Part shown: positions 1,296 to 34,256 of the stretch, piece by piece | How positions within the stretch are numbered: position 1 is the stretch's first letter | How the letters are laid out: each line of letters starts with the position of its first letter | From: Escherichia phage C130_2 | Reading direction: 5' to 3' (one strand) | Sequence record: MH363708 | Length of the DNA: 41,775 bases | Made by a program: the position numbers and the translations under genes | Notes under the pieces: generated by a model | Told to the model about the DNA's origin: nothing | What the model saw: the letters and a program-made list of their open reading frames with translations, nothing else | Databases searched by the model: none

Positions 1296-1345
1296 CCTCA
1301 TATATTAATCGGGTATCAAAACCCACGTTTAACAAAAAGTGCTAT
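1296..1345 (-). promoter_or_regulatory. Promoter-like bipartite element (inverted-repeat motif plus TATA-rich element) for gene 101-1222
   Basis: Minus strand reads ATAGCACTTTTTGTTAAAC, then about 18 nt, then TTAATATATGAGG. Member of the recurring motif family (see findings). Confidence 0.45.
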
Positions 1346-3757: not shown

Positions 3758-3806
3758 AAATAGCACTTTTTGCTAAAACAGATTAATACAGACCATATAT
3801 AGTTAA
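3758..3806 (+). promoter_or_regulatory. Promoter-like bipartite element (site A) for the plus-strand early block
   Basis: AAATAGCACTTTTTGCTAAAACA (3758-3780), 18-bp spacer, CATATATAGTT containing a TATAGT -10-like hexamer; inverted-repeat centre about 42 bp upstream of the predicted start site. Confidence 0.5.
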
Positions 3807-4049: not shown

Positions 4050-4739
4050 ATGCAAAACAAAAAAGTATTCGTTAAAGAGGATCGCTATCTGGTGATCAAG
4101 CGCGCTGACCTGGAAGCGGCAACCGCTGCGGGGCTGCTGTCAGTTGGTCAGATTGCGATCCTGAATAAGATCCTTTGCGAGTCCAGCCGGATCCGCAGCA
4201 ACCGTGGCGCACGCCCGCTGCACGGCCTGTTTGTTGAAAATGACTGGCCTGAATACGACGCCGTTTTAAAGATGATTGCAGACCGCGTGGAAGGCGTGGA
4301 CGGCGCTGATAAGCAGGGGCCGATCCTTTACTGCATCGTTGACGCTGACGGCTTGCCATTCATGCAGGAATACTGCGTTGATCTGGATGCAGCCGCATTG
4401 CAAAAAGAAGTGGACGCGATGAACGAGCAAGACGGGATCCCCCCAGGTGGTGACGGCTTCCGCGTCGTGCCCCTTGAGGTGTACACCATTTCAGGCGCGC
4501 AACAACGCTGGGCCTGGTCAACGATCTTTGATCGCTTCCTGCGCACATTCCCTGAGCAAATGAACGTGCCCAACCGCAACGCAACCACGATGATTGATGA
4601 TCTGCTGGGTGAGTACGGCGAGATCCGCGATAATGCCCAGGCGGTGATCGACGAACTCGAAGAGGCGGCGAGCCATTCACCGGACGCCCGCCCAGCGATC
4701 AACAACGCGATCAAACTTCTCCGGGGTCTGCACAAATAG
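4050..4739 (+). CDS. Hypothetical early protein (229 aa), acidic
   Basis: Long ORF with GAGG RBS; no recognisable motif. Confidence 0.6.
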   Translation: MQNKKVFVKEDRYLVIKRADLEAATAAGLLSVGQIAILNKILCESSRIRSNRGARPLHGLFVENDWPEYDAVLKMIADRVEGVDGADKQGPILYCIVDADGLPFMQEYCVDLDAAALQKEVDAMNEQDGIPPGGDGFRVVPLEVYTISGAQQRWAWSTIFDRFLRTFPEQMNVPNRNATTMIDDLLGEYGEIRDNAQAVIDELEEAASHSPDARPAINNAIKLLRGLHK

Positions 4740-4780
4740 CACTTTTTGTTAAAACGATGGGATAATTACTATATATACTT
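4736..4780 (+). promoter_or_regulatory. Promoter-like bipartite element (site B)
   Basis: ATAGCACTTTTTGTTAAAAC, 18 bp, TATATATACT (TATACT -10-like), upstream of gene 4812. Confidence 0.5.
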
Positions 4781-5974: not shown

Positions 5975-6673
5975 ATGCGTATCACAAAGGCAATGCAGGA
6001 AACAATTTTCGAAAACATTATTGCAGACAATCACCCGCTGCGCGTCCGTGCCGATAAGGTGCGCTGGAACGTCGCGCGCATGGTGGCAGATCTGGTGCTG
6101 GAAGCCCGCGCAAAAAATGGGTTTAAATCCGACGCGGAGATCGGCGCGTTAATTGAAGAGGTGAAGGATCTTAATAAGCGCGGCAAAGATTTTTTGAATG
6201 TCTCAAACTCGTTTAATAAATTCCGTCTGGAAGGTGAGGGGGAAGAAAAATATTATTACGATTATAACCTTTATTTCACGGTTGGCGGGCAGAAGCGCGA
6301 AGCCTCTTTCCTCGGTGAGTTGGACAAGGATCACCGTCTGCGCGCCGGTATCATAACCCCAGGCGTTGGGCATGAGGTGGCGCGGCCTTACCTGGGCATG
6401 TTCACACCAACCGGACGGATCAACGTTCCTGCGGATCATTGGGTCATGGCGCGCTTGCAGGAGTTGGAAAGCGAAGTTGCAGCCATTAACGGTGAGCACA
6501 TAACGTTAAAAAGCACCGTCTTTGCAACCCTGAATAAATTCACTACGGTTAAAAAGCTGGTGGCACACTGGCCCGAAGTGGAAAAATACATTCCGAAGGA
6601 TCAGCCGGTAACGGGCACCGGCATTGCGATCAGCGTCGCGGATCTTAATGCGATGTGCGGCATTCCAAAGTAA
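5975..6673 (+). CDS. Hypothetical protein (232 aa)
   Basis: ATG at 5975 with AGGAG RBS; followed by an intrinsic terminator. Confidence 0.6.
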   Translation: MRITKAMQETIFENIIADNHPLRVRADKVRWNVARMVADLVLEARAKNGFKSDAEIGALIEEVKDLNKRGKDFLNVSNSFNKFRLEGEGEEKYYYDYNLYFTVGGQKREASFLGELDKDHRLRAGIITPGVGHEVARPYLGMFTPTGRINVPADHWVMARLQELESEVAAINGEHITLKSTVFATLNKFTTVKKLVAHWPEVEKYIPKDQPVTGTGIAISVADLNAMCGIPK

Positions 6674-6691
6674 AAATTATGACCGTCACGA

Positions 6692-6716
6692 AACCGCCAT
6701 TTGTGGCGGTTTTTTA
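6692..6716 (+). terminator. Rho-independent terminator
   Basis: CCGCCA-TTTG-TGGCGG stem-loop followed by TTTTTTATTTT. Confidence 0.6.
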
Positions 6717-6761
6717 TTTTGTGCTACCCTCAAGCCGTGATCAACCAGTCGGATTGAGGAA

Positions 6762-7061
6762 ATGAATAAACTTTGGGCATGGTTAAAGACTCGCGGGAGT
6801 AAAGCCCGTATTGTGTTAATCGGTGGGTTGGTAGCCTTCACGGCTTACATTCACTTTTCGGCGGATCGACTGCGTGAGCGTTTAACGATCCTTTGGGGCA
6901 CTTTCACTGCGACGGCTGGCGCGCTTAGTCTTGGGGATGTGGCGATCATTGTCGGTATTCTCTGCACAATCGGATCACTCCTTATTAACTGGTATTACAA
7001 GGCGCGCGATGATAAGCGGAAAGAGGCCATTTTCCGTAAAGGCAGGATCATTGATGAATAG
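6762..7061 (+). CDS. Holin, class II / pinholin-like
   Basis: 99 aa, two hydrophobic helices, highly charged C-terminus ([16 protein letters not shown]) resembling the tail of phage 21 S pinholin; overlaps the endolysin start; GAGGA RBS. Confidence 0.6.
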
Positions 7062-7545
7062 CAAATTGTTTACAAAATTCACGGCGGCACTTGGAGGCGG
7101 GGCGCTGGCTGTCGCCTTCGCTTTGCTGTCCGGTCAAAATGGGTTAGAGGGGCGTGAGTATATCCCTTATCAAGATATTGTGGGGGTCTGGACGGTCTGC
7201 GACGGTCACACCGGCCCCGATATCATCAAGGGCAAGCGGTACACGGATCGGGAGTGTGACGCGCTCACCAAAGCCGATTTAAAACGCATCGCCAGCCAGA
7301 TCGATCCCAATATCAAAGTTAAGTTGCCGGAAACCGTTCACGCGGCGATCTATACCTTCGCCTATAACGTGGGCGCGGGTGCCTTCAACAAGTCAACCAT
7401 GCTGCGCAAAATCAACGCCGGTGACACCATCGGCGCTTGCAATGAGTTGCAACGCTGGGTTTACGCTGGCGGCAAGAAGTGGAAGGGGTTGATCAACCGC
7501 CGTGAGGTTGAAACAACCGTTTGCAAATGGAGCCTTACCAAATGA
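7054..7545 (+). CDS. SAR endolysin (T4-lysozyme / GH24 family, phage 21 R-like)
   Basis: N-terminal signal-anchor-release segment ([18 protein letters not shown]), then [25 protein letters not shown]...[12 protein letters not shown], closely resembling phage 21 R lysozyme as recalled. Confidence 0.85.
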
Positions 7546-8078
7546 CGTGGGCCGCTGTAGTTGCAGCGATCCAACGGTGGTGGAAGCCAGCCGCGCTGCT
7601 GTTGCTGCTGGGTGGATCCTTCGCCGCCGGCACGGCCTGGAATGATCGGGGCTGGCAAGCAAAATGGGCTGATCGGGATGCAAAAGAATCCTCCCAGGAA
7701 ACGAACGCGCAGACCGCAGCCCGCATGATTGAACAAGGGCGAACCATTGCCCGTGAAGAGGCTGTGAAAGATGCACAACAACAAGCGGCAAAAGCTGCTG
7801 CCACTGCTGCTGGCCTGTCTGCCACTGTTAGCAAGTTGCAGCAACAAGCCGGAAAACTCGCAACCCGCCTGGACGCCGCAAAGCACACCGCAGATCTTGC
7901 CGCTGCCGTCGCAAGCAAGACAACCGGCGCAAACGCCGCAATGCTCGCCAACATGCTCGGAAGCCTTGCAGAAGAAGCTAAATATTATGCTGGAAGATCT
8001 GACGAAAGCTATCGGGCCGGAATGACGTGTGAAAGGATTTACGATCAGGTGCGGGAGTCAAACAACAAGGGGCCATGA
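7542..8078 (+). CDS. i-spanin (Rz-like)
   Basis: ATGA overlap with the endolysin stop; N-terminal TM helix then Ala/Gln-rich coiled-coil periplasmic domain; last gene of the lysis cassette. Confidence 0.65.
7771..8025 (+). CDS. o-spanin (Rz1-like lipoprotein) embedded in the +1 frame of the i-spanin gene
   Basis: Lies entirely within 7542-8078 in another frame; signal peptide with lipobox LLASC, proline-rich mature part with Cys residues; the classic lambda/P21 nested arrangement. Confidence 0.6.
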
Positions 8079-8092
8079 TGGCCCCTTTTTTT
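8069..8092. terminator. Bidirectional intrinsic terminator between the lysis cassette and the convergent Ig-like gene
   Basis: GGGGCCATGATGGCCCC followed by T7 on the plus strand and a U-rich stretch on the minus strand. Confidence 0.6.
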
Positions 8093-8888
8093 ATGCTGCT
8101 GGGTTAACTGTGACCGTGCAAACGTTGCTGGTAACGGTTTTCGGCGCGTTGTTGTTCGCGCTGGTAACGGTGCAACGGAAGCGCTTGCCGCTGTCGGATT
8201 CCTGCGGGGTGGCAAATGTCAGCGTTGGGCCGGTAGCGCCAGTGATGCCGGACGCGCCCCCGTTCGTTACGTTCGTCCAGGTGGCGCCGTCCGTGGACTG
8301 CTGCCACTGGTACGTGTAAGGCAACAAGCCGTCAGCCGCCACAACCGCCAGGCTTGCTGAGGTGCCAGCCGTCCAGGTTGCAGTCGCTGCAAGGTTCGTG
8401 GTCAGGCGGATCGCAACTTTGGTGCGCTCGCGCAGTGATTCCACGGTTTGCCCTGCGGAGTCGGTAACACGGCAGAAGTAATCACCGTTGTTGCTCGCTG
8501 CATAAGACGGGATGTTATAGGTATTCTGATCCGATCCGATTGGGTTATCAGTCGAAGAAGCGCGGCGAAACCATGCGTAATGATACGGCGGGATCCCGCC
8601 TTCCATTTCCACGGTGAAAGTTTTGTTTGCGCCCAGCGCCAGATAAGTTGCCGTGGCGTCACTGCCGTTATTGCCTGGCAGGTTGGTTGCGAAGGTGAGC
8701 GGGGGCACCTGGTTTGGATCCAGTTCGATATAAAACATACCAGTTGGATCCAGCGTGAGTGCTGCCTCTTGCTCTGCGGTCAGGTAGATAACGGAAAGTT
8801 GCGGAGTCTGCCCGCCGTCCGGCCCCGCAATGCGGGTGACTTTCCAGCCCTTAAGGGCGCGATCAGGGTGTCGGTGCCAAAAGCCCAT
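8091..8888 (-). CDS. Ig-like (I-set type) tandem-domain protein, possible virion decoration or adhesin
   Basis: 265 aa; two repeats with the Ig signature (PYHYAWF...GDYFCRV and PYTYQWQQSTDG..W...DSGKRFRCTV); AGAGG RBS. Confidence 0.55.
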   Translation of the reverse strand: MGFWHRHPDRALKGWKVTRIAGPDGGQTPQLSVIYLTAEQEAALTLDPTGMFYIELDPNQVPPLTFATNLPGNNGSDATATYLALGANKTFTVEMEGGIPPYHYAWFRRASSTDNPIGSDQNTYNIPSYAASNNGDYFCRVTDSAGQTVESLRERTKVAIRLTTNLAATATWTAGTSASLAVVAADGLLPYTYQWQQSTDGATWTNVTNGGASGITGATGPTLTFATPQESDSGKRFRCTVTSANNNAPKTVTSNVCTVTVNPAA

Positions 8889-8939
8889 TTTTAAAGCCTC
8901 TTTGTTGATTGCAATCGGGGTGATGATAAACCAGCACCC

Positions 8940-8970
8940 CCGAAAACGAAAGGAGCCGCGTTTTGCGGCC
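8940..8970 (-). terminator. Intrinsic terminator after gene 8976-9287
   Basis: Minus strand GCCGC-AAAAC-GCGGC hairpin followed by CCTTTCGTTTTC. Confidence 0.45.
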
Positions 8971-8975
8971 CTTTC

Positions 8976-9287
8976 TCATAGTTTACCTGCCTCCCTTAAG
9001 GTCTGGCGTCTGTTATGCACCTGCGCGAACGTCAGCCCCATTTCTTCGGCAATCTGTCGGCTGGTCTTGTCAGCCTTCACACCGGCGATGATCTGCCGGT
9101 CTTCCTCGGTAGTCCACCAGTGGAAAGCGCGGGTGATCGATATCTCAACCCCCAGCGCGCGTGCGCGTCCGTAAACGGATTGGCGCGGGCGTCCAATGTG
9201 CGCCACGATATCTGGCCCAGGCAGGGTGCCCGCATTGTCCAGGATGAATTGATCTTCCTTCGGTGTAAACGGCTTACCGCGTGGCAT
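8976..9287 (-). CDS. Myb/SANT-like helix-turn-helix DNA-binding protein
   Basis: ATG at 9287 with AAGGGGG RBS; WTTEEDRQII and FTPKEDQFIL motifs typical of Myb-like repeats. Confidence 0.45.
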   Translation of the reverse strand: MPRGKPFTPKEDQFILDNAGTLPGPDIVAHIGRPRQSVYGRARALGVEISITRAFHWWTTEEDRQIIAGVKADKTSRQIAEEMGLTFAQVHNRRQTLREAGKL

Positions 9288-9456
9288 TCTGGCCCCCTTC
9301 TGGCTGATCGTCTGCGAAGCGTAGCGCCTTTTGGCGCAACCCATATTTTGCCAGCGCGCGGATCAGATCGGCCCAATCAAAGCGGCTGCGGAAAACCGCT
9401 TCGGGATTGTCGCCGTTAGCCAGGCGCTTTAGCTGCGTGTGCGTGATTCGTTTCAT
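9274..9456 (-). CDS. Hypothetical small protein (60 aa)
   Basis: Internal ATG at 9456 of track ORF 9274-9582 with GAAGG upstream; overlaps the next gene by 14 nt. Confidence 0.3.
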   Translation of the reverse strand: MKRITHTQLKRLANGDNPEAVFRSRFDWADLIRALAKYGLRQKALRFADDQPEGGQNATR

Positions 9457-9710
9457 AGCCCCTTCAACCTTTTTGGATTGCTTTTTGATTTGGCAATTTC
9501 GGTTTTTATGCCTTCTTTGCCCGCCCGTGTTGCAACTGCAATGCGTGTGGTTTTGCGCGGCTTTTCGTTGAGGTATACGCATTCACCATCGTTGATCACG
9601 GCGATATCGGTCACATCAAAGACCGCCGCGATCTTCGCTATATCGTCAGCCATTCCGGCTTGCTTCACCGCTTGCCATACCTCTTGCCGGTTGCCCTGTC
9701 TGAATCGCAT
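9453..9710 (-). CDS. Hypothetical small protein (85 aa)
   Basis: ATG at 9710 preceded by GGAGG 9 nt upstream, but it overlaps 9646-10083 by 65 nt; an alternative start at 9653 gives an 8-nt overlap. Confidence 0.35.
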   Translation of the reverse strand: MRFRQGNRQEVWQAVKQAGMADDIAKIAAVFDVTDIAVINDGECVYLNEKPRKTTRIAVATRAGKEGIKTEIAKSKSNPKRLKGL

Positions 9711-10083
9711 TTAAAAACGCCTCCGCGTGTCGCACTACCTGCGCGCACATATCCGCATCGAATAAGGCAATGTGACAATCAACCTTCTCGATCCCCAACT
9801 GCTTTGCCAGCCAGGCATAAGCAACCGCCCTTTTTTTATACCCGTTGCGCCAGATCGGATCAAAGGCGGCGTGCGCACGGTTGCGGGCCTTTTTGGTCTT
9901 CGCGTCAGCGGTATTGCCCAGCGGGCGATCTGATCGCGGGTGGCAACCAACCGATGCCCCGCACGCGCAGCGATAAGCGAGAATGTGCTCAAGGTCGGGG
10001 CGGTGCGGGTACATCACTTTCCCCGTGGTCAAATAGGCGGTTTTCACACCGCCGCAGATAGCGCAATCAATAGCCTTAGTCAT
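9646..10083 (-). CDS. Zinc-ribbon protein (CxxC...CxC), nin-region-like
   Basis: ATG at 10083 (TAATG overlap with the upstream gene); N-terminal CAICGG...CACGASVGCH cysteine cluster. Confidence 0.5.
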   Translation of the reverse strand: MTKAIDCAICGGVKTAYLTTGKVMYPHRPDLEHILAYRCACGASVGCHPRSDRPLGNTADAKTKKARNRAHAAFDPIWRNGYKKRAVAYAWLAKQLGIEKVDCHIALFDADMCAQVVRHAEAFLNAIQTGQPARGMASGEASRNG

Positions 10084-10319
10084 TAGCAATCCTTGTGATC
10101 ATCCCACGGCCCGAAGCCGCCAACGTAAACAAATTCACGGCCCATGCCGCCGCCGTCCTGCCGGTCATGATAGGCCGCATTCTGGCCCGTTCTCTTCTCC
10201 TGCTTCATTGCCTTGCAGGACTTGGAGCAAAAGCGGCCCCAACCGCGCCGCAGGTCAACGGCGCGCACTTCATGCGGTTTTTTGCACCACTCGCAAGGTT
10301 TAGTGACCATCTTTGCCAT
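10083..10319 (-). CDS. Small C4 zinc-finger protein
   Basis: 78 aa; CEWCKKP...CSKSCK motif. Confidence 0.5.
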   Translation of the reverse strand: MAKMVTKPCEWCKKPHEVRAVDLRRGWGRFCSKSCKAMKQEKRTGQNAAYHDRQDGGGMGREFVYVGGFGPWDDHKDC

Positions 10320-10321
10320 GA

Positions 10322-10636
10322 TTACTGATCCCCCCAGCCGTAAGCGGCTTTTAAATTTTCGTTAGCCTTCTGCATTTGTGCGTGGGCTTCGCGCAGCGTA
10401 TCGCGTTTCACTTCCACTGACGCGGCGTAAAGGCGGGTACGGTTGCGAAGGCTGCAAGCGTTGTCGAAGTTGACGCGCGCCAGCGCCAGCGCCAGTGGAT
10501 TAACCACGCGGAGCGGTTCGGATCCTTCGCGGCTTCCGGTGAATACCAACGCTTTTGCGCGGTAGATCTCGCAGCCCGCAAAGGCTGCTTTCTTGCCCCA
10601 ATGTTTAGCGCGTAATTCCTGGATAGTTGCTTTCAT
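10322..10636 (-). CDS. Hypothetical protein (104 aa)
   Basis: ATG at 10636 with GGGAGG RBS; first gene downstream of promoter-like site C. Confidence 0.5.
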   Translation of the reverse strand: MKATIQELRAKHWGKKAAFAGCEIYRAKALVFTGSREGSEPLRVVNPLALALARVNFDNACSLRNRTRLYAASVEVKRDTLREAHAQMQKANENLKAAYGWGDQ

Positions 10637-10660: not shown

Positions 10661-10710
10661 GGGTTAACTATATATGGTCATTATGCCGGATGTTTAGCAA
10701 AAAGTGCTAT
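10661..10710 (-). promoter_or_regulatory. Promoter-like bipartite element (site C)
   Basis: Minus strand ATAGCACTTTTTGCTAAACA, 18 bp, CATATATAGTTAACCC; the 16-mer CATATATAGTTAACCC is identical to that at site A. Confidence 0.5.
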
Positions 10711-10734: not shown

Positions 10735-11529
10735 TTAATATGGCACGTTGGCATTTGAGAGGAAAACGGCTTCGGCAAAGCCTCGCGGCGTCACACTCCT
10801 GATCGCCTTTGTCCTGGCATTCCGGCCCCCTGCGGCGTACCAGCCAGGATTGCAGCGCTTCCCGTTGATCAGCTGTATGGGCACCGGATTTTTTGGAGGC
10901 ATCACGAATGCTTCATTGCACCAAATGCCGGTTTTCTTCGGGTACGCATCGCGCGGCGGGTAGATCGTCGGGTAGATCGGGTGAGCGTCCACCTCTGGCA
11001 GATAGCCGCCATACTCGAACGGGTCGAAGGTGTGATCCGGCCTTCTCCACTGCGTGTTAAGCGTGTTAACTGCCGGATTCTCAAGCATCCACGGGATCTG
11101 CTTGCCGTCGCCGTTCTGCATGTCGCAGTAACCAGCAACCCACATCACCAGCTTTGCCAGCCTGATCGCGTCCTGCTGATCCTGTCGGCGGTTCGGGTAG
11201 TTTGGATGCGGGCGGCGCTCGCTGGTTGGCAAGTGCTTATCATCTGGATGATAGAACCACTTCGCGCCGGTGGTGGTTAGGTACGTGCATTCAGCGAAGC
11301 TGGCGACGAACTCAACGCCAGGGCCAACCATGCTGGCGATCTCCTGCGCTTGATTCACGATATCATGAGCCTTGAACCACATCCCCACGCGAACGATCAG
11401 AGGATTGACCGGATCGCGGTGAATGCCGTCAGGGTGTTTGCCGTCGAATAACCAACATTCATAACCTGCCCCCAACCAGGGGGCGGGCATAATGTCCGAT
11501 TCGTTAAAAAGGAAAATGGCTTTGCGCAT
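10735..11529 (-). CDS. Hypothetical enzyme-like protein (264 aa), function unknown
   Basis: Long ORF coupled to the upstream gene; His/Asp/Cys-rich; contains ENP and a C-terminal PRGFAEAV segment only faintly like C5-methyltransferase motifs. No confident assignment. Confidence 0.5.
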   Translation of the reverse strand: MRKAIFLFNESDIMPAPWLGAGYECWLFDGKHPDGIHRDPVNPLIVRVGMWFKAHDIVNQAQEIASMVGPGVEFVASFAECTYLTTTGAKWFYHPDDKHLPTSERRPHPNYPNRRQDQQDAIRLAKLVMWVAGYCDMQNGDGKQIPWMLENPAVNTLNTQWRRPDHTFDPFEYGGYLPEVDAHPIYPTIYPPRDAYPKKTGIWCNEAFVMPPKNPVPIQLINGKRCNPGWYAAGGRNARTKAIRSVTPRGFAEAVFLSNANVPY

Positions 11530-12600: not shown

Positions 12601-13329
12601 TTATAAGACGCTTGCGGAAGCGTCCAGCATATCTTGCTTAGTAAGATAATCCGTCTTCACTGGCCCGCGTTTGCGTGGCTTAATCAGGAATAGTGAACTT
12701 GCCTTACTGTTTTTCCGGCCTTCCACTTCGGTTGCCGCATTCACGAATGCTACGCGCCCGTTATGGAATTTTTCTTCGCCTTTGGCGTCGGTGCCGTAAT
12801 AGCCCATGATGTTTACAATCTCGCTGCACGCCTGGATCATGTCATAGAACCATTGCGGCGAGTGGTCATGATTCAGAAGCATAACCGTTGTCACGCCATG
12901 CTGTTTTGCATTTCGTGCTGCTGCTGCAACCCAGGGGATCGGGTCTGCATACGGTGGATTACACCAGACGGTTTCCCCCTCCTTGCCCCATGCCACCTGC
13001 GGATCCAGCGCGTTTTGCTGCTCGTCGATAAACTCAACGCAAAGGGCGTTTCCGGCCTCTGCCGCAACGTCACGCGCGAACGGCCCCCAGCGGTGATCGG
13101 CATAGTTAAACAACCATTTTGGGGTGCGCCATTTCTGCCGGATAGCGTCAGGGGTTTTGCTCTTCGCAAAGCGTCGGCCCGTAATGACCTGATCCACTTC
13201 CTCCGGGGTTGCCGCCAGCGCGCCAGCGCCAGCCGCTTTCAATGCCTCTTCCAGCACCGCTTGCGGGATCGCAAAGTCTGCTGCCACCTGCGCAAGATCA
13301 ACGGTCTTGCTGTCGTTTTCGTCTTTCAT
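12601..13329 (-). CDS. DNA N6-adenine methyltransferase (phage Dam-like)
   Basis: Catalytic motif WCNPPY; ATG at 13329 overlapping the dUTPase stop (TGATG). Confidence 0.8.
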   Translation of the reverse strand: MKDENDSKTVDLAQVAADFAIPQAVLEEALKAAGAGALAATPEEVDQVITGRRFAKSKTPDAIRQKWRTPKWLFNYADHRWGPFARDVAAEAGNALCVEFIDEQQNALDPQVAWGKEGETVWCNPPYADPIPWVAAAARNAKQHGVTTVMLLNHDHSPQWFYDMIQACSEIVNIMGYYGTDAKGEEKFHNGRVAFVNAATEVEGRKNSKASSLFLIKPRKRGPVKTDYLTKQDMLDASASVL

Positions 13330-13781
13330 CACTTCGCCTTTTTATCAGTTGAGCCAAAGCCGTTGGCACCGCGTGCCGTGTCTTTGATCGTTTCCACTTC
13401 CGCGATCTGCCACTGCGGCGCGTCAACGATCATGCCCTGGGCAATAGCCGTGGTTGGGTCAATGGCTGGATATTCGCCGGTAGGGCGATCAGAAACGATT
13501 TTTACTTTCACCTCTCCGGTATAGTCGCTATCGATCACCCCCACGCAATTTGACAAGCGCGCATCCTGCTTGAATCCGTGCCCGCTGCGGCTGTAAATCA
13601 TCAGGGCTTTGCCCTTCGGAATGTCGAATACCAGCCCCGTTGAGAAGATCAGGGCGTTGATTTTTTCGTCGTAACTGCTTTCGATCCCGTAAATGTCGAA
13701 ACATGCTGATCCCTCGGTTGCATATTCTGGCAGACGCGCCAGGGGGTTTAACTTCTTAACGCCTAACACATTTGATCCCAT
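13329..13781 (-). CDS. dut: dUTP diphosphatase (dUTPase)
   Basis: Motifs SRSG, GVIDSDYTGE and C-terminal RGANGFGST characteristic of trimeric dUTPases; GAGG RBS. Confidence 0.85.
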   Translation of the reverse strand: MGSNVLGVKKLNPLARLPEYATEGSACFDIYGIESSYDEKINALIFSTGLVFDIPKGKALMIYSRSGHGFKQDARLSNCVGVIDSDYTGEVKVKIVSDRPTGEYPAIDPTTAIAQGMIVDAPQWQIAEVETIKDTARGANGFGSTDKKAK

Positions 13782-20704: not shown

Positions 20705-20733
20705 ATAAGGGGCCATTGCGGCCCCTTTTTTTA
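20705..20733. terminator. Bidirectional intrinsic terminator between the plus-strand block and the tailspike gene
   Basis: A-run, GGGGCCATTGCGGCCCC, T7. Confidence 0.65.
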
Positions 20734-22983
20734 TGTTGGCGTGCGGAACGACACAACTTTTGCCGCTGCAAGCTGGGTGCCAGCCGGTGTGGCGGTCTGG
20801 ATAGCGTGAGCAATATCGATCCTGATCTCACTGGTTGGATCGTTCACGTTGACACGATAAGGCCCGCGCGTGATCCACGTAGAAAGAGGATTGCCCCCTT
20901 CACCGGCACCAGGGATCACAATTCGGCACCCTGGCGAAAGTGGCGTTTTGTAGATCCAGACCATATCACCATTATTGCCACCTAGCGGAAAGTTTGAAGC
21001 AATCGAGAAGGATCCCACGGTGGTTGCCTTGATTTTAAATTCATCAATGGCGGGAATGTACGCGCCGGAGGCGGTCACAACGAAGATCTTTCCGTCATTT
21101 CGAACAACGAGATCCCCCTCCATGAACTCACGCCCCGTGGGGAATGCGTTACCATCCCAAATGCCCGTGGCGTTCATATCAGCCGGTGACGGAATGATAT
21201 AAGTGTGATTCGATGCGGTCATTTTTGCACCGATCCCGCCGTCAATCCCCTGGCGCGGATATGGGCGCGCAAAGACGTTGGATCCTACGCTTTCGATATG
21301 CGAATAGGCGCAGCGTGACCAACCTTGATCGCCGTAGCCGTTCACGTCAGTTGCGTTAACGTTGACCATTCGCAAGATGGTGCGCCCCGTGGCAAGGTAG
21401 CCGTTTGAAGCTGTGCCGCCCGATGAATCATCACCCACGCAATCAAAGATCCGGCAATGAACATTGCTCATGTTCAATTCAGTTGCCACACCGAAAAGCG
21501 AGAATTTCGCCACGTTCACATTTTCAATGTAATACGTGTTAGTTGCCCCTGCCTTCTCGGTGCCGATACCGGCATAAAAGCGCCCTGTTTTACTGTATAC
21601 GTTGCGGATCGCCATATCGTGACAAGGGCCGCGCGCGCCAACGCCAGCATTTGTGCCCCATTCAAGCATAATAACGCGCACATCCTGGGCAAGCGTGCTG
21701 CCGGTAACTACCGGTTCACCGTAAACCCCATCAATGGAGCAACGGCGGGAGCCGTAGAAAAGCACCGTCGCAACCGTCAGGCCGGAACCGTTCGAAACGT
21801 TCTGGTTGGGGTCGCCGTGGATGTTTTCAACAACGGAATCACGAACCATTTCGAAGTGTACGATCTGACGCACTTTGTTTGCGTAAACGTTACGGATCGT
21901 AATGTTTTTGGCAAAGTTTGCGTCAGGTGTATCAATGCCATAAGGGCTTTGACCTGCAACCCCAATCCCAATACCCCAGTTTGACGGCGTGATCGGGGCT
22001 TGGCCTGTTGAGTCGATGTTATCAAGGAAAATGCCGTCAATCAGGCAACCATTATCATAATGGCGCTGTACTACGTTTAACTCGATCCCGTCGCCGCCCA
22101 TATCGTAAAACGACAAATTGCGGTAGACGCCGGACACAACCGTTGATCCCGTGCCTTGCTGGAGGATGCCGTAAAGGCCATTCCGAAACTCGGAATCGCT
22201 GACCTCAATAGTGCTTCCGTCCACTGGCACACCCTGCATCATGATTGATGCAACCTTGCTGGTTGTCGGCTTACCGTCAAACATGCAATCGCGGATCCTT
22301 ACGTCGCCGCCGTAGTGCATGATTCGCAGGTTGTTAATCACTGCACCTTCGATCAGGGTGTCAGTCAGGCGAAAATCTGCGGTGCCCTTCCAGGTTCCCC
22401 CCATGATGGTGATCCCATTCGGGTTGACCGTGCTTTCAAGCGTGCCAGACCAACCATAAGCGTTGACGATCTTCCCGTTCGCTTTGGCGTAGTCAAACAT
22501 TGCCTGAATCGCCTGTGAAACGCTGGTGTACTCTTCGCGGCCCACAAAATCAAACGGCGTCACAAAGCCTTGCAGTTTGGTTTTTAGCGTGCCTTCTGGC
22601 GTGCCCACGTATTCCCAGCCGGTAGACGATCCGATCACCTTCCACATCTGCGCCGCGTCATATTCCAGAAGGTTATCAAAGGAATATTGCAGCACGTCAT
22701 TGCGATCATAAACGTCCATGCTTGATGCGGTCTGCGTCACAAAGCGCCCAACAATCCCGTTATATTCGGGATAGCCGCTCTGGTTGATTTTGATCGGCTG
22801 CGGCACCGGCACCAGCGTTAGATCCTCATTTTCCAGGTACACTTGCACCTGATTTGCCGGATCCTTCGGGTTGGTGTCGGGCTTGCCAATATAGATATCA
22901 CCGCCGCTGATAGGCGCAAACTTGCCAACCTGAATAAACGGGCTGGACGGCATACGCACGGCAGAAAAAACAATATCGCTCAT
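20731..22983 (-). CDS. Tailspike protein (P22-like N-terminal head-binding domain, beta-helix receptor-binding domain)
   Basis: ATG at 22983 with GAGG RBS; N-terminus GDIYIGKPDTNPKDPANQVQVYLENED...PIKINQSG..YNG matches the P22 tailspike head-binding domain as recalled; rest is Gly/Asn/Val-rich, consistent with a parallel beta-helix. Confidence 0.85.
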   Translation of the reverse strand: MSDIVFSAVRMPSSPFIQVGKFAPISGGDIYIGKPDTNPKDPANQVQVYLENEDLTLVPVPQPIKINQSGYPEYNGIVGRFVTQTASSMDVYDRNDVLQYSFDNLLEYDAAQMWKVIGSSTGWEYVGTPEGTLKTKLQGFVTPFDFVGREEYTSVSQAIQAMFDYAKANGKIVNAYGWSGTLESTVNPNGITIMGGTWKGTADFRLTDTLIEGAVINNLRIMHYGGDVRIRDCMFDGKPTTSKVASIMMQGVPVDGSTIEVSDSEFRNGLYGILQQGTGSTVVSGVYRNLSFYDMGGDGIELNVVQRHYDNGCLIDGIFLDNIDSTGQAPITPSNWGIGIGVAGQSPYGIDTPDANFAKNITIRNVYANKVRQIVHFEMVRDSVVENIHGDPNQNVSNGSGLTVATVLFYGSRRCSIDGVYGEPVVTGSTLAQDVRVIMLEWGTNAGVGARGPCHDMAIRNVYSKTGRFYAGIGTEKAGATNTYYIENVNVAKFSLFGVATELNMSNVHCRIFDCVGDDSSGGTASNGYLATGRTILRMVNVNATDVNGYGDQGWSRCAYSHIESVGSNVFARPYPRQGIDGGIGAKMTASNHTYIIPSPADMNATGIWDGNAFPTGREFMEGDLVVRNDGKIFVVTASGAYIPAIDEFKIKATTVGSFSIASNFPLGGNNGDMVWIYKTPLSPGCRIVIPGAGEGGNPLSTWITRGPYRVNVNDPTSEIRIDIAHAIQTATPAGTQLAAAKVVSFRTPT

Positions 22984-23035
22984 TGTTGGTGCCTCGTTGT
23001 TGTATTCAGGCTTTAGTGTATAGACGTTCAGGAAA

Positions 23036-23057
23036 TTAAAAAAGGGGCCGAAGCCCC
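23036..23057 (-). terminator. Intrinsic terminator (UUCG hairpin plus U-run) upstream of tailspike
   Basis: Minus strand GGGGC-TTCG-GCCCC followed by TTTTTTT; the 20-mer is identical to the terminator at 31301-31320. Confidence 0.6.
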
Positions 23058-23062
23058 TTTGG

Positions 23063-26000
23063 TTACTGCTGCCCGTAGATCTGGATCCGCTGCTCACCGT
23101 CAGGGCCGGTGATTAACGGCGGGCGCTCGTCGGTCTGCTCACCGTCGCTGGCTGCTGCCGCTGCCGGAGTACCGGCAAGCCATGCGATGAAACCAGCGCG
23201 GGCGATTTGACGTTGATCAGCCTCGGCAAGCGTGGCGATAAAGTCTTGGGCCGCTTTGCTGTTCGCAAGGCGTCGCTCTGTGGTGTTGATGATCGTCCGG
23301 CTTGGGCCGCTGGATCCATCGTCTGCCACCATGCGAGCAACCGCCCTGATCGCCTGGGTCATATCATCACCGGCGAGGAAACGATCCGCAACCTGCGAAG
23401 CCGCAGCACGGTTGGCAACTGCCCCGCGCGCAGCCTCAACGGCAACGTTACCGAAGCCAGGAGAAACCGCAGCCGCCGCCGATTGCGTCAACATGGCACC
23501 GATCCGCGTGTTAAAGACTTTATCCAAAAAGTCATTGCTGTTGTTGAAGCGGCGCGAAAAGTTGTTGATCTTGCCGGTGGCGGCGAAAGATTCACCCTCT
23601 TTGCGGGCTGCGTTGGCGACTTTCGCCAGGTTGTCAACAACTGCACGCTGATCCGCTGGCAGGTGCTGCATGAGCATTCCCAATTTGCCTGAGTTGCGCG
23701 CCTCGGTGTACCACTTCGCAAAGCCTGGAATGTTCAGGCGTTCGCCGGTGGTGCCGCTCATGCGGAATGCCATTGCAAGCGCGTTGGTCGCAACCTGCGG
23801 GCGCATAGCCGCTGGCGTTGATCGCATGAGAGTTTGAAAACCCTTTGGATCTGCGCCTTTGGTGCCCAGCGCTTTAACAGCCTGATAAATCTTGCTGCTT
23901 GCGGAATTATCAAGCTCTTTGCCCAGCACGGCTTGCTGTTTGGCCTGTAGCGCCACGCGCTGACGGGTCAGATCCTTTGCCGCATCCCACGCATCTTTCA
24001 CGCCAAACTGTGCCGCCACATCCCCTTGATCCTCGGTTAAACGGCTGTACATGGCGTTAAGGCGCGCAACGTTCGCATCCTTGTATGGGCCTTGACGCTT
24101 GTTAATCGCCGCGCCAACGTCTTTGCGCACATCGTCCAGAAGGGCGAAAGTCGGCCCGCCTCGGCTGTCGCTGGTTGGGCTTAGGCGTTCCAATACGCTA
24201 CGCTCAATCGGATCCAGGTTGGCTGCGCCGCCACGGTTACTGGCTTTCTGGTTGAGGTAATCAACCGTCTTTTCTGGATTTACCGGAGTGTGATCCGGGA
24301 TCGTGCGCAATGATTTGTTATAGGCCGCAGTTTCAGCGGTGCCGATATCATCGATCAGTCGGCTTGTCTCTGCCTTGAATGCCTGATCGAAGGTGAGATC
24401 CTCAACCGGCCCGCCTAAGTCTTCCAGCACCTTATCTGCGCGGGCAGTCAACGCCTGATACTGGCGGCTCTGCTTCTCACCCAAAAGGGATCCGGTTTCG
24501 CTGCGCAGGTTGCCGATCACGTCGCGGGTTGACTTGTCGCGCATAAACAGGCCAGGCGTCAGATCGTCAGTCACGCCCAATTCATCTGCGGCGCGCACAA
24601 CCTCTGGATCGATATCGCCACGGCGCGCAAGGTTGATCGCCGCGTTCGGTGCGCTGGAAGTCTCGCCGGTTGCCGCGTCGGTTACTGTGGTGCGCGGTGC
24701 GCTTCCGCGTGCTGCTGCGGTTGCATCCTGTCGCACGGCGTCAATAGCGGCTTGTTGCGTCGCTTCTGCGCCACCAGTACCAGTGCCAGTGCCCGCGCCC
24801 GTTGCGTCCTCTGCTGGGCGGATCAGATCACGGATCACCGGTGCTGCACGCCGTGCGGCTGCGCCAACGGCATTTACTGCCGCCTCGCCCACTGGCCCTG
24901 CTGCGATGCCGATCAGCGCGTCTTGCTGGTCGCCTTCGCTGGCTGCAAGGGCACCTGGCACGGCACGGGTTGCCGGTGCTGCGATCCGTTGCTCAAGGAA
25001 TCCCCCCAAACGGGAAAGGATGCTCGCAACCTCTGGCGAAGCTGTGCCCGCCAATTCTGCCATTTCGCGTGCGATACCCTGAATTTTCGGGGCTGCTGAC
25101 ATAGCCGCGCCACCAGGGATCGGGGTCAGACCGGCGATCAACTTCGCGCCAAACTGAGCATAAGGATCTTCGGGATCATCAAGCCCCATGCCGATCCGGC
25201 CTTCGGGGATCGGGGTATAGGTGCCGTCACCCAGCCCAACTTGCTTGCCCAGCCATGCACCGGCAGACTGTGCCGCGTTCGCTGCATAGATCGGGATGTT
25301 GAGCACGTCTTCTGCTGCGCGCACTAAACCTTTGCCCGCCTGAGTCAGATCGCGCCCAATCGTTGTGGGTGCCTGGTAATCCTGCAACTGCTCTGCGCTG
25401 TAGTAGTCGCCGCTGGTGTCTGGTTGCGGCTGTGCGGCGCTCTGCTGCGTCGTGGCGGCTTGCGGCTGTGGTTGGGTGTCCATAGTCGCTTGCGGCTGTT
25501 CTGGCGCTGCTGGCTGCGTTTCCTGCGGTGCTCGCGGGGTCAGTTCGCCAAACTGGCTGGCAAATTTGTTGGTTGATCCGGTGTCGCCGGCACGGGCGCT
25601 GGTTGCCCGCTGTGGCGCGTCGGAGTCTGTGACCGCACCCAAAGCGCGATCAATCGGGTTAACGCCGCCCGTCCACTGGTCAAAGCGTGAATCGACGTAT
25701 TGACGCCCTTCCGGCCCTGGGGTGTACTCGCCTTTTAACATGGCGTCGGTGTTGCCTGGGCCGTCATGGTACGCTTGCAGGGCCAGCCCCCAATCGCCGT
25801 AGCGGTCATACATCTGGCGCAGGTATTTTGCGCCCGCTTCGGCCTGTAGCGCAGGATTGTTGCGCACCTCTGCTGGGTCATAGCCCATATCGCGCAGCGT
25901 GCCTGGCATAACCTGAGTGCCACCAATGGCACCTTTGCTGGACGTTGCGCCAGTGTCGCCGCCAGACTCTTTGCCAACGAGCGCAGACATAAGCCCTTCT

Positions 26001-26128
26001 GGAATGCCCTGTGATGCGCCCGCCGCTTCCCAATGATTGCCGCCCTGCTGCTGCGGGGCGGTCTGCTGCGGTTGTGCCTGGGCGTTGCCGCCCAGGTTCC
26101 CGAAAGTTGCCGCAAAGTTGAAAGCCAT
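23063..26128 (-). CDS. Ejection / internal virion protein with N-terminal lytic transglycosylase (SLT) domain
   Basis: 1021 aa; N-terminal GKESGG...GGTQVMPGT...AYHDGPGN SLT signature; long Ala/Gly/Thr-rich low-complexity remainder; in the position of P22 gp16. Confidence 0.7.
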   Translation of the reverse strand: MAFNFAATFGNLGGNAQAQPQQTAPQQQGGNHWEAAGASQGIPEGLMSALVGKESGGDTGATSSKGAIGGTQVMPGTLRDMGYDPAEVRNNPALQAEAGAKYLRQMYDRYGDWGLALQAYHDGPGNTDAMLKGEYTPGPEGRQYVDSRFDQWTGGVNPIDRALGAVTDSDAPQRATSARAGDTGSTNKFASQFGELTPRAPQETQPAAPEQPQATMDTQPQPQAATTQQSAAQPQPDTSGDYYSAEQLQDYQAPTTIGRDLTQAGKGLVRAAEDVLNIPIYAANAAQSAGAWLGKQVGLGDGTYTPIPEGRIGMGLDDPEDPYAQFGAKLIAGLTPIPGGAAMSAAPKIQGIAREMAELAGTASPEVASILSRLGGFLEQRIAAPATRAVPGALAASEGDQQDALIGIAAGPVGEAAVNAVGAAARRAAPVIRDLIRPAEDATGAGTGTGTGGAEATQQAAIDAVRQDATAAARGSAPRTTVTDAATGETSSAPNAAINLARRGDIDPEVVRAADELGVTDDLTPGLFMRDKSTRDVIGNLRSETGSLLGEKQSRQYQALTARADKVLEDLGGPVEDLTFDQAFKAETSRLIDDIGTAETAAYNKSLRTIPDHTPVNPEKTVDYLNQKASNRGGAANLDPIERSVLERLSPTSDSRGGPTFALLDDVRKDVGAAINKRQGPYKDANVARLNAMYSRLTEDQGDVAAQFGVKDAWDAAKDLTRQRVALQAKQQAVLGKELDNSASSKIYQAVKALGTKGADPKGFQTLMRSTPAAMRPQVATNALAMAFRMSGTTGERLNIPGFAKWYTEARNSGKLGMLMQHLPADQRAVVDNLAKVANAARKEGESFAATGKINNFSRRFNNSNDFLDKVFNTRIGAMLTQSAAAAVSPGFGNVAVEAARGAVANRAAASQVADRFLAGDDMTQAIRAVARMVADDGSSGPSRTIINTTERRLANSKAAQDFIATLAEADQRQIARAGFIAWLAGTPAAAAASDGEQTDERPPLITGPDGEQRIQIYGQQ

Positions 26129-27451
26129 TTAAAGCCCCTCTGGTAAATAGCCCGCCCATTCTTTAAAGGCGCGTTTGTTCTCTTCTGACGGGTCAGAGAG
26201 TAGCATTTTGCGCGCCTGGGCTGGTACTCCCAATTCATCCAGCTTGGGATCATTCATCACCGCATCATAACGGCTGGTGTTGTTGGTGTATTCCTTCACG
26301 CGCCCGCCGTTGGCTTTTTCGTACCCATCGCGCAAACGCTTAAGGTAGTTGCCAAAGTTTTTGATCGCACGCTGTGCCGCTGCCGGATCCTGAATGTTTT
26401 CAGGGTCGAAGCCCATCAACGATTGCGTGATCGCCATGCTTTCTTTTTCGGACATGCCCGCAGCCGTACCGGATGCAGCCTTGAGTGCCGCCATTGATTG
26501 CGACATTGCCAGGCCTTGAAGTGACTTAAGATCCTGCACCAGTTGCTTTTCATCGTTCGCGCCAGGGATGTTGCGCGCAATGGTGCCGCTTAAACCGCTT
26601 GCGCCTTCCCACGCCGTCTGCAAACGCTGTTTGCTGGCTGGGTTTTTCTGGTTGTCAGGGATCAGGCGGTTGACCTGTCCAATTGCATTATCAAGCGTCG
26701 TAACCTGGCTGTTGTAGCCGTTCAGCCAGTCGCGCTGGGTGTCTACGGTGTCGCCGTATACCTGCGCTTGTTTCTGCTGCGCTGCGGTGCGCTCACGCTC
26801 GCTCTTCGCCAGTTCGGCTTGCTGCTTGGCTTGCTGGCCCTGATAGCGCAAAAAGTTAAACTGGCGATTCATAGCCAGATTAGCCGCCTGGATATCCTGC
26901 GAGCGAGCCGTAAGGCGGTTGCGCTCAACCTCGTTGGCGTAGTCCAGTTGGTCTTTTGTGCCCATGCTGGAAAGCTGCACCGCGTGAACCGCCTGTTCAA
27001 AGCCCTGCTGGTCTGTCTGGTACTGCTCCCACGCATCCTGCGGATCGATGTTCAGCGCCTGGAATGCACCGGCGTTTTGCTGAATAAACTGCTGTACCTG
27101 CTGCGGCCCCTGAGACATTGCCACGCGCACGCCGTTTGCAAGCTGGCCCGCCTGGGTCGCTTGCATATCGTCTTGCAGCCCGATCCGCTCTTTCAGGGTG
27201 CTAATCATCGACGGGTATTTATAAACCAGATCATTCAGCTTTTGCGGATCGCCGCGTGCCGCGCTCCAATCCTGGTTAAACTGCTGCAATTGCTGCTGCT
27301 GCTGATCCTGCTGCTGCATGGCTTTAGCACGGATCTGGTTCTGCTGCTGCAATCCGGTGTTTTGCTGGATCGTCTGAATGTTATTGAGCGTGTTTTGCCC
27401 TGCGCGCTCAATAACCCCCATGTTTTGACCGAAAACGCTCATATCTGACAT
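26129..27451 (-). CDS. Ejection protein (P22 gp20-like by position), Gln-rich
   Basis: 440 aa, translationally coupled, very Q-rich; assignment by synteny only. Confidence 0.45.
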   Translation of the reverse strand: MSDMSVFGQNMGVIERAGQNTLNNIQTIQQNTGLQQQNQIRAKAMQQQDQQQQQLQQFNQDWSAARGDPQKLNDLVYKYPSMISTLKERIGLQDDMQATQAGQLANGVRVAMSQGPQQVQQFIQQNAGAFQALNIDPQDAWEQYQTDQQGFEQAVHAVQLSSMGTKDQLDYANEVERNRLTARSQDIQAANLAMNRQFNFLRYQGQQAKQQAELAKSERERTAAQQKQAQVYGDTVDTQRDWLNGYNSQVTTLDNAIGQVNRLIPDNQKNPASKQRLQTAWEGASGLSGTIARNIPGANDEKQLVQDLKSLQGLAMSQSMAALKAASGTAAGMSEKESMAITQSLMGFDPENIQDPAAAQRAIKNFGNYLKRLRDGYEKANGGRVKEYTNNTSRYDAVMNDPKLDELGVPAQARKMLLSDPSEENKRAFKEWAGYLPEGL

Positions 27452-28113
27452 TAGATCATCGCTCCAAAGAAGCTGCCCGCCGCTTGCGGTGCGCCGTTAA
27501 GATCCTGCGCAACGCCGTTACCGATAGAGTTGTTCATATAGGCCGCTGTCATCCACGGCAACGCCGCTTTCTGGCCCTGAATGTTCCCTTTCGTCTGGTA
27601 GAGGCCGGAAAGGTTGTTAGCCGTACCGGTAGCGAAGCCGCCCAACTGCGCGCCAGCGTTCGCGCCAGTGCCCGCAATATCCATCAGGTTTGAAAAACGA
27701 TCCTGATACTGCTGATACATTTGCGTTAAGTAGTTCTGGCCCAACTGCGACGCGATAGATCCCAGGCGGTTTTGCGTGGTGCTCGCGCCCAGCGTGCCAG
27801 TTGCCTCGGCAGACGCTAACGCCGCGTTGTTCGCCGCGTTGCTCATTAGGCCGTATTCCTGCCCGCCGTAGAAGTCGGACAAAAGACCGGCGCGATCAAA
27901 GCCGTCTGACAACTGGCCTTGAGCCTGGCCCAGCGCGTCTTGACCTGCATCAACGTATGGATCCAGATAGTTTTGCGCAGTTTGCAGCCCTTCACGCTGC
28001 GCGCCCATTGCCTTATCGGTGTACTTGCTTTGCTGTTTTAACTGCTTGTTGGTGCCGATGCCGCCTAACAAGCCGCCAACGGCGTTGGTTACACCGCTAA
28101 CAATCCCGCCCAT
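27451..28113 (-). CDS. Ejection protein (P22 gp7-like by position)
   Basis: 220 aa, Gly/Ala/Gln-rich; AGGAGG RBS; synteny only. Confidence 0.45.
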   Translation of the reverse strand: MGGIVSGVTNAVGGLLGGIGTNKQLKQQSKYTDKAMGAQREGLQTAQNYLDPYVDAGQDALGQAQGQLSDGFDRAGLLSDFYGGQEYGLMSNAANNAALASAEATGTLGASTTQNRLGSIASQLGQNYLTQMYQQYQDRFSNLMDIAGTGANAGAQLGGFATGTANNLSGLYQTKGNIQGQKAALPWMTAAYMNNSIGNGVAQDLNGAPQAAGSFFGAMI

Positions 28114-29028: not shown

Positions 29029-29038
29029 GTCTGCCCCC

Positions 29039-30954: not shown

Positions 30955-30956
30955 GA

Positions 30957-31283: not shown

Positions 31284-31300
31284 GGTGAGATCCTCATATG

Positions 31301-31320
31301 AAAAAAGGGGCCGAAGCCCC
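31301..31320 (-). terminator. Intrinsic terminator after the coat gene
   Basis: Minus strand GGGGC-TTCG-GCCCC followed by TTTTTT; identical to 23036-23057. Confidence 0.65.
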
Positions 31321-31353
31321 TTATTTATACACTTTTCAATCAGGTTGCGCCAG

Positions 31354-32619: not shown

Positions 32620-32657
32620 CTATTTATTGCTCCTGCCGATGATGTTCGGGAATAAGT

Positions 32658-33656: not shown

Positions 33657-33726
33657 TAGCTTTTACACTCCTATACGCGATGAATTTTTGTACCCCATCG
33701 GCGGGCAAGGTGAGTGTAAGGCAGTA

Positions 33727-33742: not shown

Positions 33743-33754
33743 GGTGAATGCACG

Positions 33755-34247: not shown

Positions 34248-34256
34248 GGCATCCCC

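Follow-up and report, generated by a model that had tools for sequence, protein, structure and literature searches.

The gene described here belongs to Escherichia phage C130_2, a member of the genus Giessenvirus (PMC7552041), whose sequence (MH363708, 41,775 nucleotides) was analysed at its full length and is called the window. An open reading frame that a sequence-only reading had placed at 8091-8888 of the minus strand was found at exactly these positions (Table 1). The identical (100%) C130_2 protein is named 'Hoc-like head decoration' at NCBI, a label that RefSeq already carries, and UniRef calls the same 265-aa protein 'Neck whiskers protein'. The product matches phrog_2973 ('Hoc-like head decoration') with an E-value of 4e-52, residues 51-265 being aligned with profile positions 94-286 of 310; this match takes in the hinge and the Ig part only and leaves the N-terminal module outside. 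No hydrophobic segment, signal peptide or membrane segment was detected in the 265-aa protein (maximum KD19 1.2), hence it would act in the cytoplasm or after lysis. The composition of the gene is ordinary for C130_2, with a GC content of 58.8%, a GC3 of 66% and a codon-usage correlation of r 0.70.

At its 3' end the gene faces the holin, endolysin and Rz/Rz1 genes of the lysis cassette, in the convergent arrangement that the sequence-only reading had described. Upstream lies the gene of an HTH/D5-like regulator, the last cistron of the small-gene operon. The surroundings also hold a 'nucleotide modification associated domain 5' (Nmad5) protein at 5975-6673(+), just upstream of the lysis cassette, and two DNA methyltransferases at 10735-11529(-) and 12601-13332(-), which together suggest a DNA-modification strategy against host restriction.

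Table 1. Features of the Ig-domain gene, of its neighbourhood and of the virion module of C130_2, with positions in the window
Feature	Positions	Strand	Basis or remark
CDS, 265 aa	8091..8888	-	ORF listing; stop codon 8091-8093
Shine-Dalgarno AAGAGG	8897..8902	-	8 nt before ATG; read from sequence
Type-A N-terminal module, residues 1-58, putative virion anchor	8715..8888	-	predicted four beta-strands and one short helix
Proline-containing hinge NQVPPLTFATNLPGNNGSDATA, residues 59-80	8649..8714	-	alignment of 35 homologues
Ig-like domain 1 (Ig1), residues 81-152	8433..8648	-	Pfam Ig_3, Ig_2, I-set; pLDDT 93-98
Inter-domain linker RERTKVAIRLTTNL, residues 153-168	8385..8432	-	conserved in 35-homologue alignment
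Ig-like domain 2 (Ig2), residues 169-265	8094..8384	-	Pfam 'ig'; pLDDT 96-98
-10-like hexamer TGCAAT, candidate promoter only	8908..8913	-	position conserved downstream of hairpin in six phages
Terminator-like hairpin (GAAAGGGCCGC-AAAAC-GCGGC-UCCUUUC) and tract CGUUUUCG	8938..8975	-	terminator scan
HTH / D5-like transcriptional regulator, 122 aa	8976..9344	-	phrog_323, E 1e-17
Bidirectional terminator hairpin AAGGGGCC-N5-GGCCCCTT	8067..8087	.	terminator scan, both strands
Lysis cassette, convergent	6762..8078	+	Pfam, PHROG matches
Holin	6762-7061	+
Endolysin, lysozyme-type	7054-7545	+
Rz with embedded Rz1	7521-8078 (Rz1 7771-8025)	+
Colanic-acid-degrading tailspike	20731-23097	-	phrog_6117
Three ejection proteins	23063-28113	-
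Tail needle	28495-29028	-
gp10-like adaptor	29039-30487	-
gp4-like adaptor	30487-30960	-
Coat	31354-32619	-	CUS-3 coat structure 8skg, E 8e-183
Scaffold	32658-33656	-
P22-type portal	34810-37050	-
Large terminase	37525-39147	-

Domain architecture and the N-terminal modules

The protein consists of two Ig-fold domains behind an N-terminal domain without assignment, as had been proposed from the sequence. The Pfam search put forward for that proposal matched Ig_3, Ig_2, I-set and 'ig', with Ig_3 reaching 36.5 bits in two stretches (gathering score 30) and 'ig' 23.4 bits over residues 192-251 (gathering score 21.8). The AlphaFold2 model, built from 35 homologues, has a mean pLDDT of 90.6. Residues ~61-265 fold in it as two beta-sandwiches (pLDDT 93-98), and residues 1-60 as a small beta-rich module with a pLDDT of 66-75 in the full-length model; the predicted structure of the N-terminal module is moderately confident (pLDDT ~75, pTM 0.48). 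Foldseek gave a probability of 1.00 to tandem-Ig structures. The top fold match in the PDB was RB49 Hoc (3shs, E 8e-10), with further matches to chains of the 9e99 reconstruction of the N4 capsid (E 3e-8), while the BFVD matches include the 'Decorating protein' of the T5-like phage Gostya9 and the 'Capsid decorating protein' of the N4-like phage Frozen. The other PDB and BFVD matches are generic tandem-Ig proteins and phage Ig proteins labelled tail or fibre. Since these occur in both lists, the fold searches establish the fold and not the location of the protein. By sequence, the best PDB matches were the T5 pb10 chains 8zvi and 5lxk (E 7e-5), with residues 59-148 of the query aligned to pb10 62-147. 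Comparison of Ig1 with Ig2 of the C130_2 protein revealed no detectable sequence similarity between them.

At least 58 protein clusters match the 265-aa protein, and 35 of the homologues were aligned. All 35 contain the hinge (…PL-F…L-G…), Ig1, a linker of the form R-x-R-T-K-x-A-I-x-L-[ST]-T-N-L, in which R153, R155, A159, T164 and N165 are nearly invariant, and Ig2; the Sortkaff homologue has a third Ig domain. Upstream of the hinge two unrelated N-terminal modules occur, type A of ~58 aa (consensus MGFWHRYYRxDLLGWKVTRIxDP…DVIWLDxEP…LDPTGMFYIE) and type B of ~100 aa. The former was found in C130_2, in Murray-, Sortsne- and Skarprettervirus and in Kosakonia relatives, and the latter in Cronosvirus (T7-like, Autographiviridae). 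The hinge is the point where both module types join the common Ig body, and the alignments with T5 pb10 and with the Cronosvirus homologues start there as well. The mean pairwise identity of the N-terminal modules is 69% within group A and only 17% between A and B, whereas that of Ig1 is 49% within A and 47% between A and B, and that of Ig2 61% and 51%, respectively. Therefore, one Ig body, with 47-51% identity between the groups, has been combined with two different modules. Judged by these identities, the N-terminal module is the most constrained part of the protein within one lineage.

The N-terminal module had no match in Pfam, among PDB sequences or among PDB folds, and no resemblance to any known capsid-binding domain. 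When its profile was run against 1.84 billion proteins in search of other cargo, only its own family and one anchor-only protein were recovered, two further matches being spurious repeat proteins.

Modules also occur without Ig cargo. Type-A proteins lacking Ig domains are Lumpael gp24 (70 aa) and those of Kc259 and P0061 (72 aa each), and each of them adjoins an Ig-bearing paralogue. In Lumpael and sortregn a 70-aa module-only gene follows the Ig gene. The P0061 gene lies after the 3' end of the Ig-domain gene, convergent with the endolysin/holin pair, and only ~70 bp separate its stop codon from the next gene, so that there is no room for Ig domains. Kc259 encodes a 246-aa protein, composed of a divergent type-A module and two Ig domains, followed by the 72-aa module-only protein; the idea that Kc259 is a natural gene-minus phage was ruled out by this divergent copy and the anchor-only paralogue.

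The type-B counterpart is Gp54 of Yersinia phage phi80-18, a protein of 135 aa with a type-B module and no Ig domain. With the N-terminal module of GAP227 gp44 it shares 40% identity (E 2e-17), and its gene occupies the slot of GAP227 gp44 between large terminase and lysin. Gp54 is listed as particle-associated by LC-MS/MS (Table S2, PMC7316996). This detection is suggestive and is the only experimental link between a module and a virion; it concerns type B, which is non-homologous to type A, and the phi80-18 proteome is a permissive one, as it lists helicase, ligase, polymerase and terminase as particle-associated too. The gene (g54, L007 2484-2891) is labelled 'recombinase' in RefSeq and in phrog_10357, probably a misannotation, given its homology to the N-terminal module of the 'Hoc-like' GAP227 protein and its presence in particles.

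Gene position and transcription signals

The slot of the Ig gene, downstream of same-strand methylases and small genes and convergent with lysis, is the same in C130_2, IME_EC2, KMB41, Sortsne, Skarpretter and Lumpael, and the locus is kept across Giessen-, Murray-, Sortsne- and Skarprettervirus. Elsewhere the neighbourhood is late and structural. In Kc259 the Ig gene closes the virion operon, coming straight after the tailspike gene across a gap of 48 nt with a GC hairpin and no U-tract, and in GAP227 it directly follows the large terminase gene. Hence, the statement of the sequence-only reading that the gene lies outside the structural operon holds for C130_2 and fails for Kc259, that is, it is lineage-specific. 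Lysis genes adjoin the Ig gene in every lineage examined.

Between the regulator gene and the Ig gene of C130_2 stands the terminator-like hairpin of Table 1 (dG -18.8 kcal/mol, z -2.98). The corresponding GGGCCGC-loop-GCGGCTC followed by CTTTCGTTT was found in six of six phages (C130_2, Skarpretter, IME_EC2, KMB41, Sortsne and Lumpael), which represent four genera and have identical stems and differing loops. On the other side, between the stop codons of the Ig gene and Rz, lies the bidirectional hairpin (dG -16.5 and -15.9 kcal/mol). The conserved hairpin upstream and the bidirectional terminator downstream indicate that the Ig gene is probably insulated from the small-gene operon. It is thus probably not the last cistron of that operon, as it had been taken to be, because a hairpin and a T-tract intervene in six phages of four genera.

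A second hairpin with the identical 8-bp stem is found at 20707-20727, where none would be expected by chance. The two copies mark the genome's two convergent junctions, that of Rz with the Ig gene and that of the end of the rightward operon with the tailspike gene. Another terminator-like hairpin with a T-tract, at 6681-6711(+), occupies the gap between the Nmad5 and holin genes (dG -15.4 kcal/mol, z -3.7), so that the lysis cassette too is bracketed by terminators, and one may ask how late genes are turned on in this phage group.

The Ig gene may be transcribed from a promoter of its own or by read-through. The -10-like box, which is TACAAT in Murray- and Sortsnevirus, has no good -35 element, and a consensus sigma-70 scan upstream of the Ig gene returned no site. 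A search for a late-promoter motif shared by the regions upstream of the Ig, holin and structural genes gave nothing convincing. Murrayvirus annotations begin the Ig gene 14 codons early, at MPGQYTAQFHEDKI (L001 7959-8000, L002 7959-8000, L005 2953-2994); this early ATG overlaps the conserved TACAAT box, and among the genera it is the downstream M-[GAS]-[FY]-W that is kept as the start.

A distinct signal recurs elsewhere in the genome. The 18-nt element ATAGCACTTTTTG[CT]TAAA has five copies in C130_2, with none expected by chance, at 1328-1345(-), 3760-3777(+), 4736-4753(+), 10693-10710(-) and 34796-34813(-), and variants at 13857(-) and 37099(+). It also occurs at L001 4549 and 6859, L002 4227 and 6534, and L005 1856, and is identical in IME_EC2, KMB41 and Lumpael. 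The element is an inverted repeat (TAGCA-N5-TGCTA) overlapping a -35-like TTGCTA; each copy heads a gene block, and three have TATATA(G/C)T ~18-20 nt later. It is probably the operator/promoter signal of this phage group; the stretch immediately before the Ig gene lacks it.

A moron-type independent cassette would have a terminator on either side and its own promoter; the Ig gene has hairpins on both sides, the upstream one kept in six phages, and a -10-like box (TGCAAT/TACAAT) but no consensus promoter was seen. The deviating composition and patchy presence of such a cassette were not observed, the GC content and codon usage being ordinary and the locus the same in four genera. Recent horizontal acquisition was rejected on the ordinary composition and the conserved synteny. 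The earlier suggestion that the gene was acquired separately is therefore correct in a deep modular sense, since the same Ig body is found on two unrelated modules, and incorrect as a recent arrival, for the position is kept in four genera and both GC content and codon usage are ordinary.

Virion type and distribution of the type-A module

The gene content of the virion module (20731-39147) identifies C130_2 as a P22/CUS-3-type podovirus. No sheath, tube or baseplate gene was found, and there is no space for them. Relatives are podoviruses by EM (PMC8402661). C130_2 itself was published as 'a novel myovirus', according to the title as quoted in PMC7552041, in contrast with its podovirus gene content.

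Homologues of the Ig protein are labelled 'major tail subunit', 'tail protein' or 'neck whiskers protein'. None of these labels can be literal, and the first cannot apply because C130_2 is a podovirus without a tail tube. Only residues 59-151 align with the HK639 major tail protein and only residues 62-161 with T4-type fibritins; hence the similarities behind the tail and whisker labels, as judged from these alignments, are limited to Ig1. Two specific candidates were rejected. For a siphovirus major tail protein with a C-terminal Ig domain, no tail-tube domain was matched and no tube gene is present. For a T4 Wac/fibritin neck whisker, a coiled-coil fibre with a trimerising foldon at its C-terminus, only residues 62-161 (Ig1) matched and the AlphaFold2 model contains no long helix.

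The coat of every isolate that carries type A is 62-75% identical to that of C130_2. The temperate phages CUS-3, Sf101 and Kapi1, with coats 67-69% identical, lack the type-A module, even when queried with the divergent paralogues. This co-occurrence fits an accessory, dispensable protein matched to the C130_2 virion type; it cannot tell capsid from portal or tail binding, because the whole virion module is co-inherited. The tailspikes of C130_2 (20731-23097(-)), Kc259 (L009 7356-9734(-)) and GAP227 (gp41, L006 1-1226) all belong to phrog_6117, and thus two podovirus lineages that are otherwise unrelated have both the Ig body and a receptor-degrading type of tailspike in common. Among the records of the phage collection the closest is 'Stutzerimonas phage vB_SstS_STP9' (OR754315.1), with 95% nucleotide identity over 6500-10500 and a coat 98.8% identical to that of C130_2; its host (Stutzerimonas stutzeri) or its siphovirus label looks doubtful.

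Proposed capsid decoration and its alternatives

The closest known parallel is T5 pb10 (5LXL, 5LXK, 8ZVI), in which a small N-terminal domain, a proline-containing hinge and a solvent-exposed C-terminal Ig domain follow each other in the same order. Its N-terminal domain attaches to the capsid and varies less than the exposed Ig domain (PMC5292684). The C130_2 protein has the same order of conservation, and the pb10 Ig domain is detectably homologous to C130_2 Ig1 (E 7e-5). Capsid binding has been demonstrated for the N-terminal domain of pb10, and by analogy the C130_2 module may have the same role. Like several of the homologues, pb10 at first bore a mistaken tail-protein label on account of its Ig domain (PMC7602432). 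The anchors differ: that of pb10 is a five-helix domain (PMC5292684), whereas for the C130_2 module a beta-rich structure is predicted, with no resemblance to the pb10 anchor in sequence or fold. Moreover, pb10 has one Ig domain on the T=13 capsid of T5, and the C130_2 protein two on a P22/CUS-3-type T=7 particle.

In Hoc, which is dispensable and sits at the hexamer centres of the capsid, the Ig domains are N-terminal and the capsid-binding domain 4 is C-terminal. RB49/T4 Hoc (3SHS), with tandem I-set-like Ig domains, is the best PDB fold match of the C130_2 protein, and a role as a dispensable, surface-exposed adhesion module may be common to the two. The domain order is reversed, however, since in C130_2 the non-Ig module is N-terminal and unrelated and nothing follows Ig2. 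The C130_2 protein is consequently an analogue and not an orthologue of Hoc, and it is not an orthologue of pb10 either. N4 gp17 (9E99), with relatives such as the 'capsid decorating protein' of Erwinia phage Frozen, is an Ig decorator of similar size (~280 aa) on a podovirus capsid, but the identity to the C130_2 protein is low (15-17%), the Schitoviridae capsid is T=9 and no anchor is shared. Cronosvirus GAP227 gp44 and Dev-CD-23823 gp45 have the Ig1-linker-Ig2 body in common with C130_2 (42-46% identity), and their 'Hoc-like' genes likewise adjoin lysis genes; they differ in the unrelated type-B module, in the T7-like virion and in the late-operon slot after the large terminase gene. In phi80-18 Gp54 the N-terminal module stands alone and is particle-associated. 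Phage L Dec, a dispensable OB-fold trimer on a P22-type T=7 capsid, is the sole P22-type decorator in a review of the field (PMC7602432). It binds quasi-3-fold sites and is related neither in sequence nor in fold to the C130_2 protein. No report of an Ig-type decorator on the P22-type capsid lineage was found in the literature.

These comparisons favour an accessory capsid decoration protein with pb10-like display on the virion surface, to which a probability of about 0.6 may be assigned; the proposal of an accessory surface protein made from the sequence is thereby kept as the best reading, and the adhesin named beside it is a putative role. The lineage-specific N-terminal module (residues 1-58) would dock on the assembled P22/CUS-3-type particle, most likely on the capsid shell, a target that the protein would encounter in the cytoplasm as particles assemble. 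In the mature lattice, several subunits together make up a decoration site. The proline-containing hinge and the two Ig-like domains would point outward into the solvent, where the Ig domains may bind weakly to glycans or cell surfaces or help to keep particles dispersed, functions that have been proposed for Hoc, pb10 and N4 gp17 (PMC7602432). The gene, presumably expressed late and dispensable, would be insulated from the upstream operon by the conserved hairpin and would end at the terminator shared with the lysis cassette. Several observations count for this reading, namely that the nearest relatives in sequence and structure include known capsid decorators and that the order of conservation (69% for the module against 49% for Ig1 and 61% for Ig2) parallels that of pb10. 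The module swap, the restriction of type A to phages with 62-75% identical coats and the bare modules count for it too, as do the late, structural neighbourhood in Kc259 and GAP227, the lack of a hydrophobic segment and the podovirus build without a tail tube. Against it stand the unfamiliar N-terminal module, which resembles no known capsid-binding domain, the lack of this module in temperate phages whose coats are just as similar (67-69%), and the fact that the particle evidence is from a permissive proteome and a type-B protein. On virion proteomics, EM or genetics of C130_2 or of Giessen-, Murray-, Sortsne- and Skarprettervirus, the searchable literature offered nothing usable.

A virion protein of the tail or neck would be a collar or whisker-like appendage, or an accessory on the portal/gp4/gp10 hub or on the tailspike, its Ig domains helping the phage to bind surface polysaccharide reversibly next to the colanic-acid-degrading tailspike. 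This arrangement seems unlikely. For it speaks that in Kc259 the tailspike gene is followed at once by the Ig gene and the anchor-only paralogue; in P22-like genomes, however, this slot is a usual site of accessory genes. The co-occurrence with the virion module suits tail binding as well as capsid binding, and both groups sharing the Ig body have the phrog_6117 colanic-acid-type tailspike. Likewise, the Kosakonia relatives have a 'collar and short tail' by EM (PMC8402661), and phage tail proteins often carry Ig domains (PMC7602432). The 'tail' and 'whisker' labels of homologues, however, stem from Ig-domain similarity only, a coiled coil or trimerisation motif is absent, and the best-studied small proteins of this architecture (pb10, Hoc and N4 gp17) are capsid decorators.

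It is even harder to regard the product as a soluble Ig protein outside the virion, acting in the cell or freed at lysis as a decoy for host debris, capsule or outer-membrane vesicles, or as a lysis-linked factor; such a role is improbable. The constant proximity of lysis genes and the position outside the virion operon in C130_2 would agree with it, as would the fact that the searchable literature contains no direct virion detection of type-A proteins. A conserved small module with variable Ig cargo, accompanied by Ig-less paralogues, is nevertheless hard to square with a soluble decoy. The type-B module alone has been detected in particles, no signal peptide is present, and the closest phage relatives with a studied role are virion decoration proteins, the other phage matches being labelled tail or fibre. 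Finally, a decaying or non-functional frame with a relic Ig similarity, for which nothing specific speaks beyond the frequent dispensability of accessory decoration genes, is effectively refuted by the conservation seen in sequence comparison, with intact full-length homologues in at least 58 clusters, conserved domain boundaries and invariant core residues, together with a confident AlphaFold2 model, a good ribosome-binding site and genome-typical codon usage.

Beyond capsid decoration by this one protein, a broader and distinctly tentative possibility is that the N-terminal modules are small portable adaptors for docking on virions, a class not recognised before. Two unrelated types would be matched to two podovirus lineages, the P22/CUS-3-like lytic Giessen-/Murray-/Sortsne-/Skarprettervirus (type A) and the T7-like Cronosvirus/Pokrovskaiavirus (type B), and would occur bare or with one to three Ig domains. 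If so, the decoration of C130_2 would be the first of Ig type to be described for a P22-like T=7 capsid, and where a phage encodes both forms, the bare paralogue would either compete with the Ig-bearing one for the same sites or take up others.

Overall the C130_2 protein is no surprise, given that about one in four tailed phages has Ig-like domains in its structural proteins. Both the RefSeq label 'Hoc-like head decoration' and the great frequency of Ig domains on phage structural proteins were already known; new here are the orphan putative anchor, its two interchangeable types and the bare paralogues. The protein is hence of an ordinary kind for a phage, with a new putative anchor module and a putative place on the virion. 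The comparison also corrects the contradictory labels 'major tail subunit', 'tail protein', 'neck whiskers protein' and, for phi80-18 Gp54, 'recombinase'. Ig-domain decoration proteins have been proposed to mediate adherence to mucus and cell surfaces, and Hoc and pb10 have been used for antigen display. If the docking role is true, the module of ~58 aa would provide a new handle for decorating the well-studied P22/CUS-3-type capsid lineage, and the Ig-less paralogues offer a natural system in which to follow the gain and loss of display cargo.
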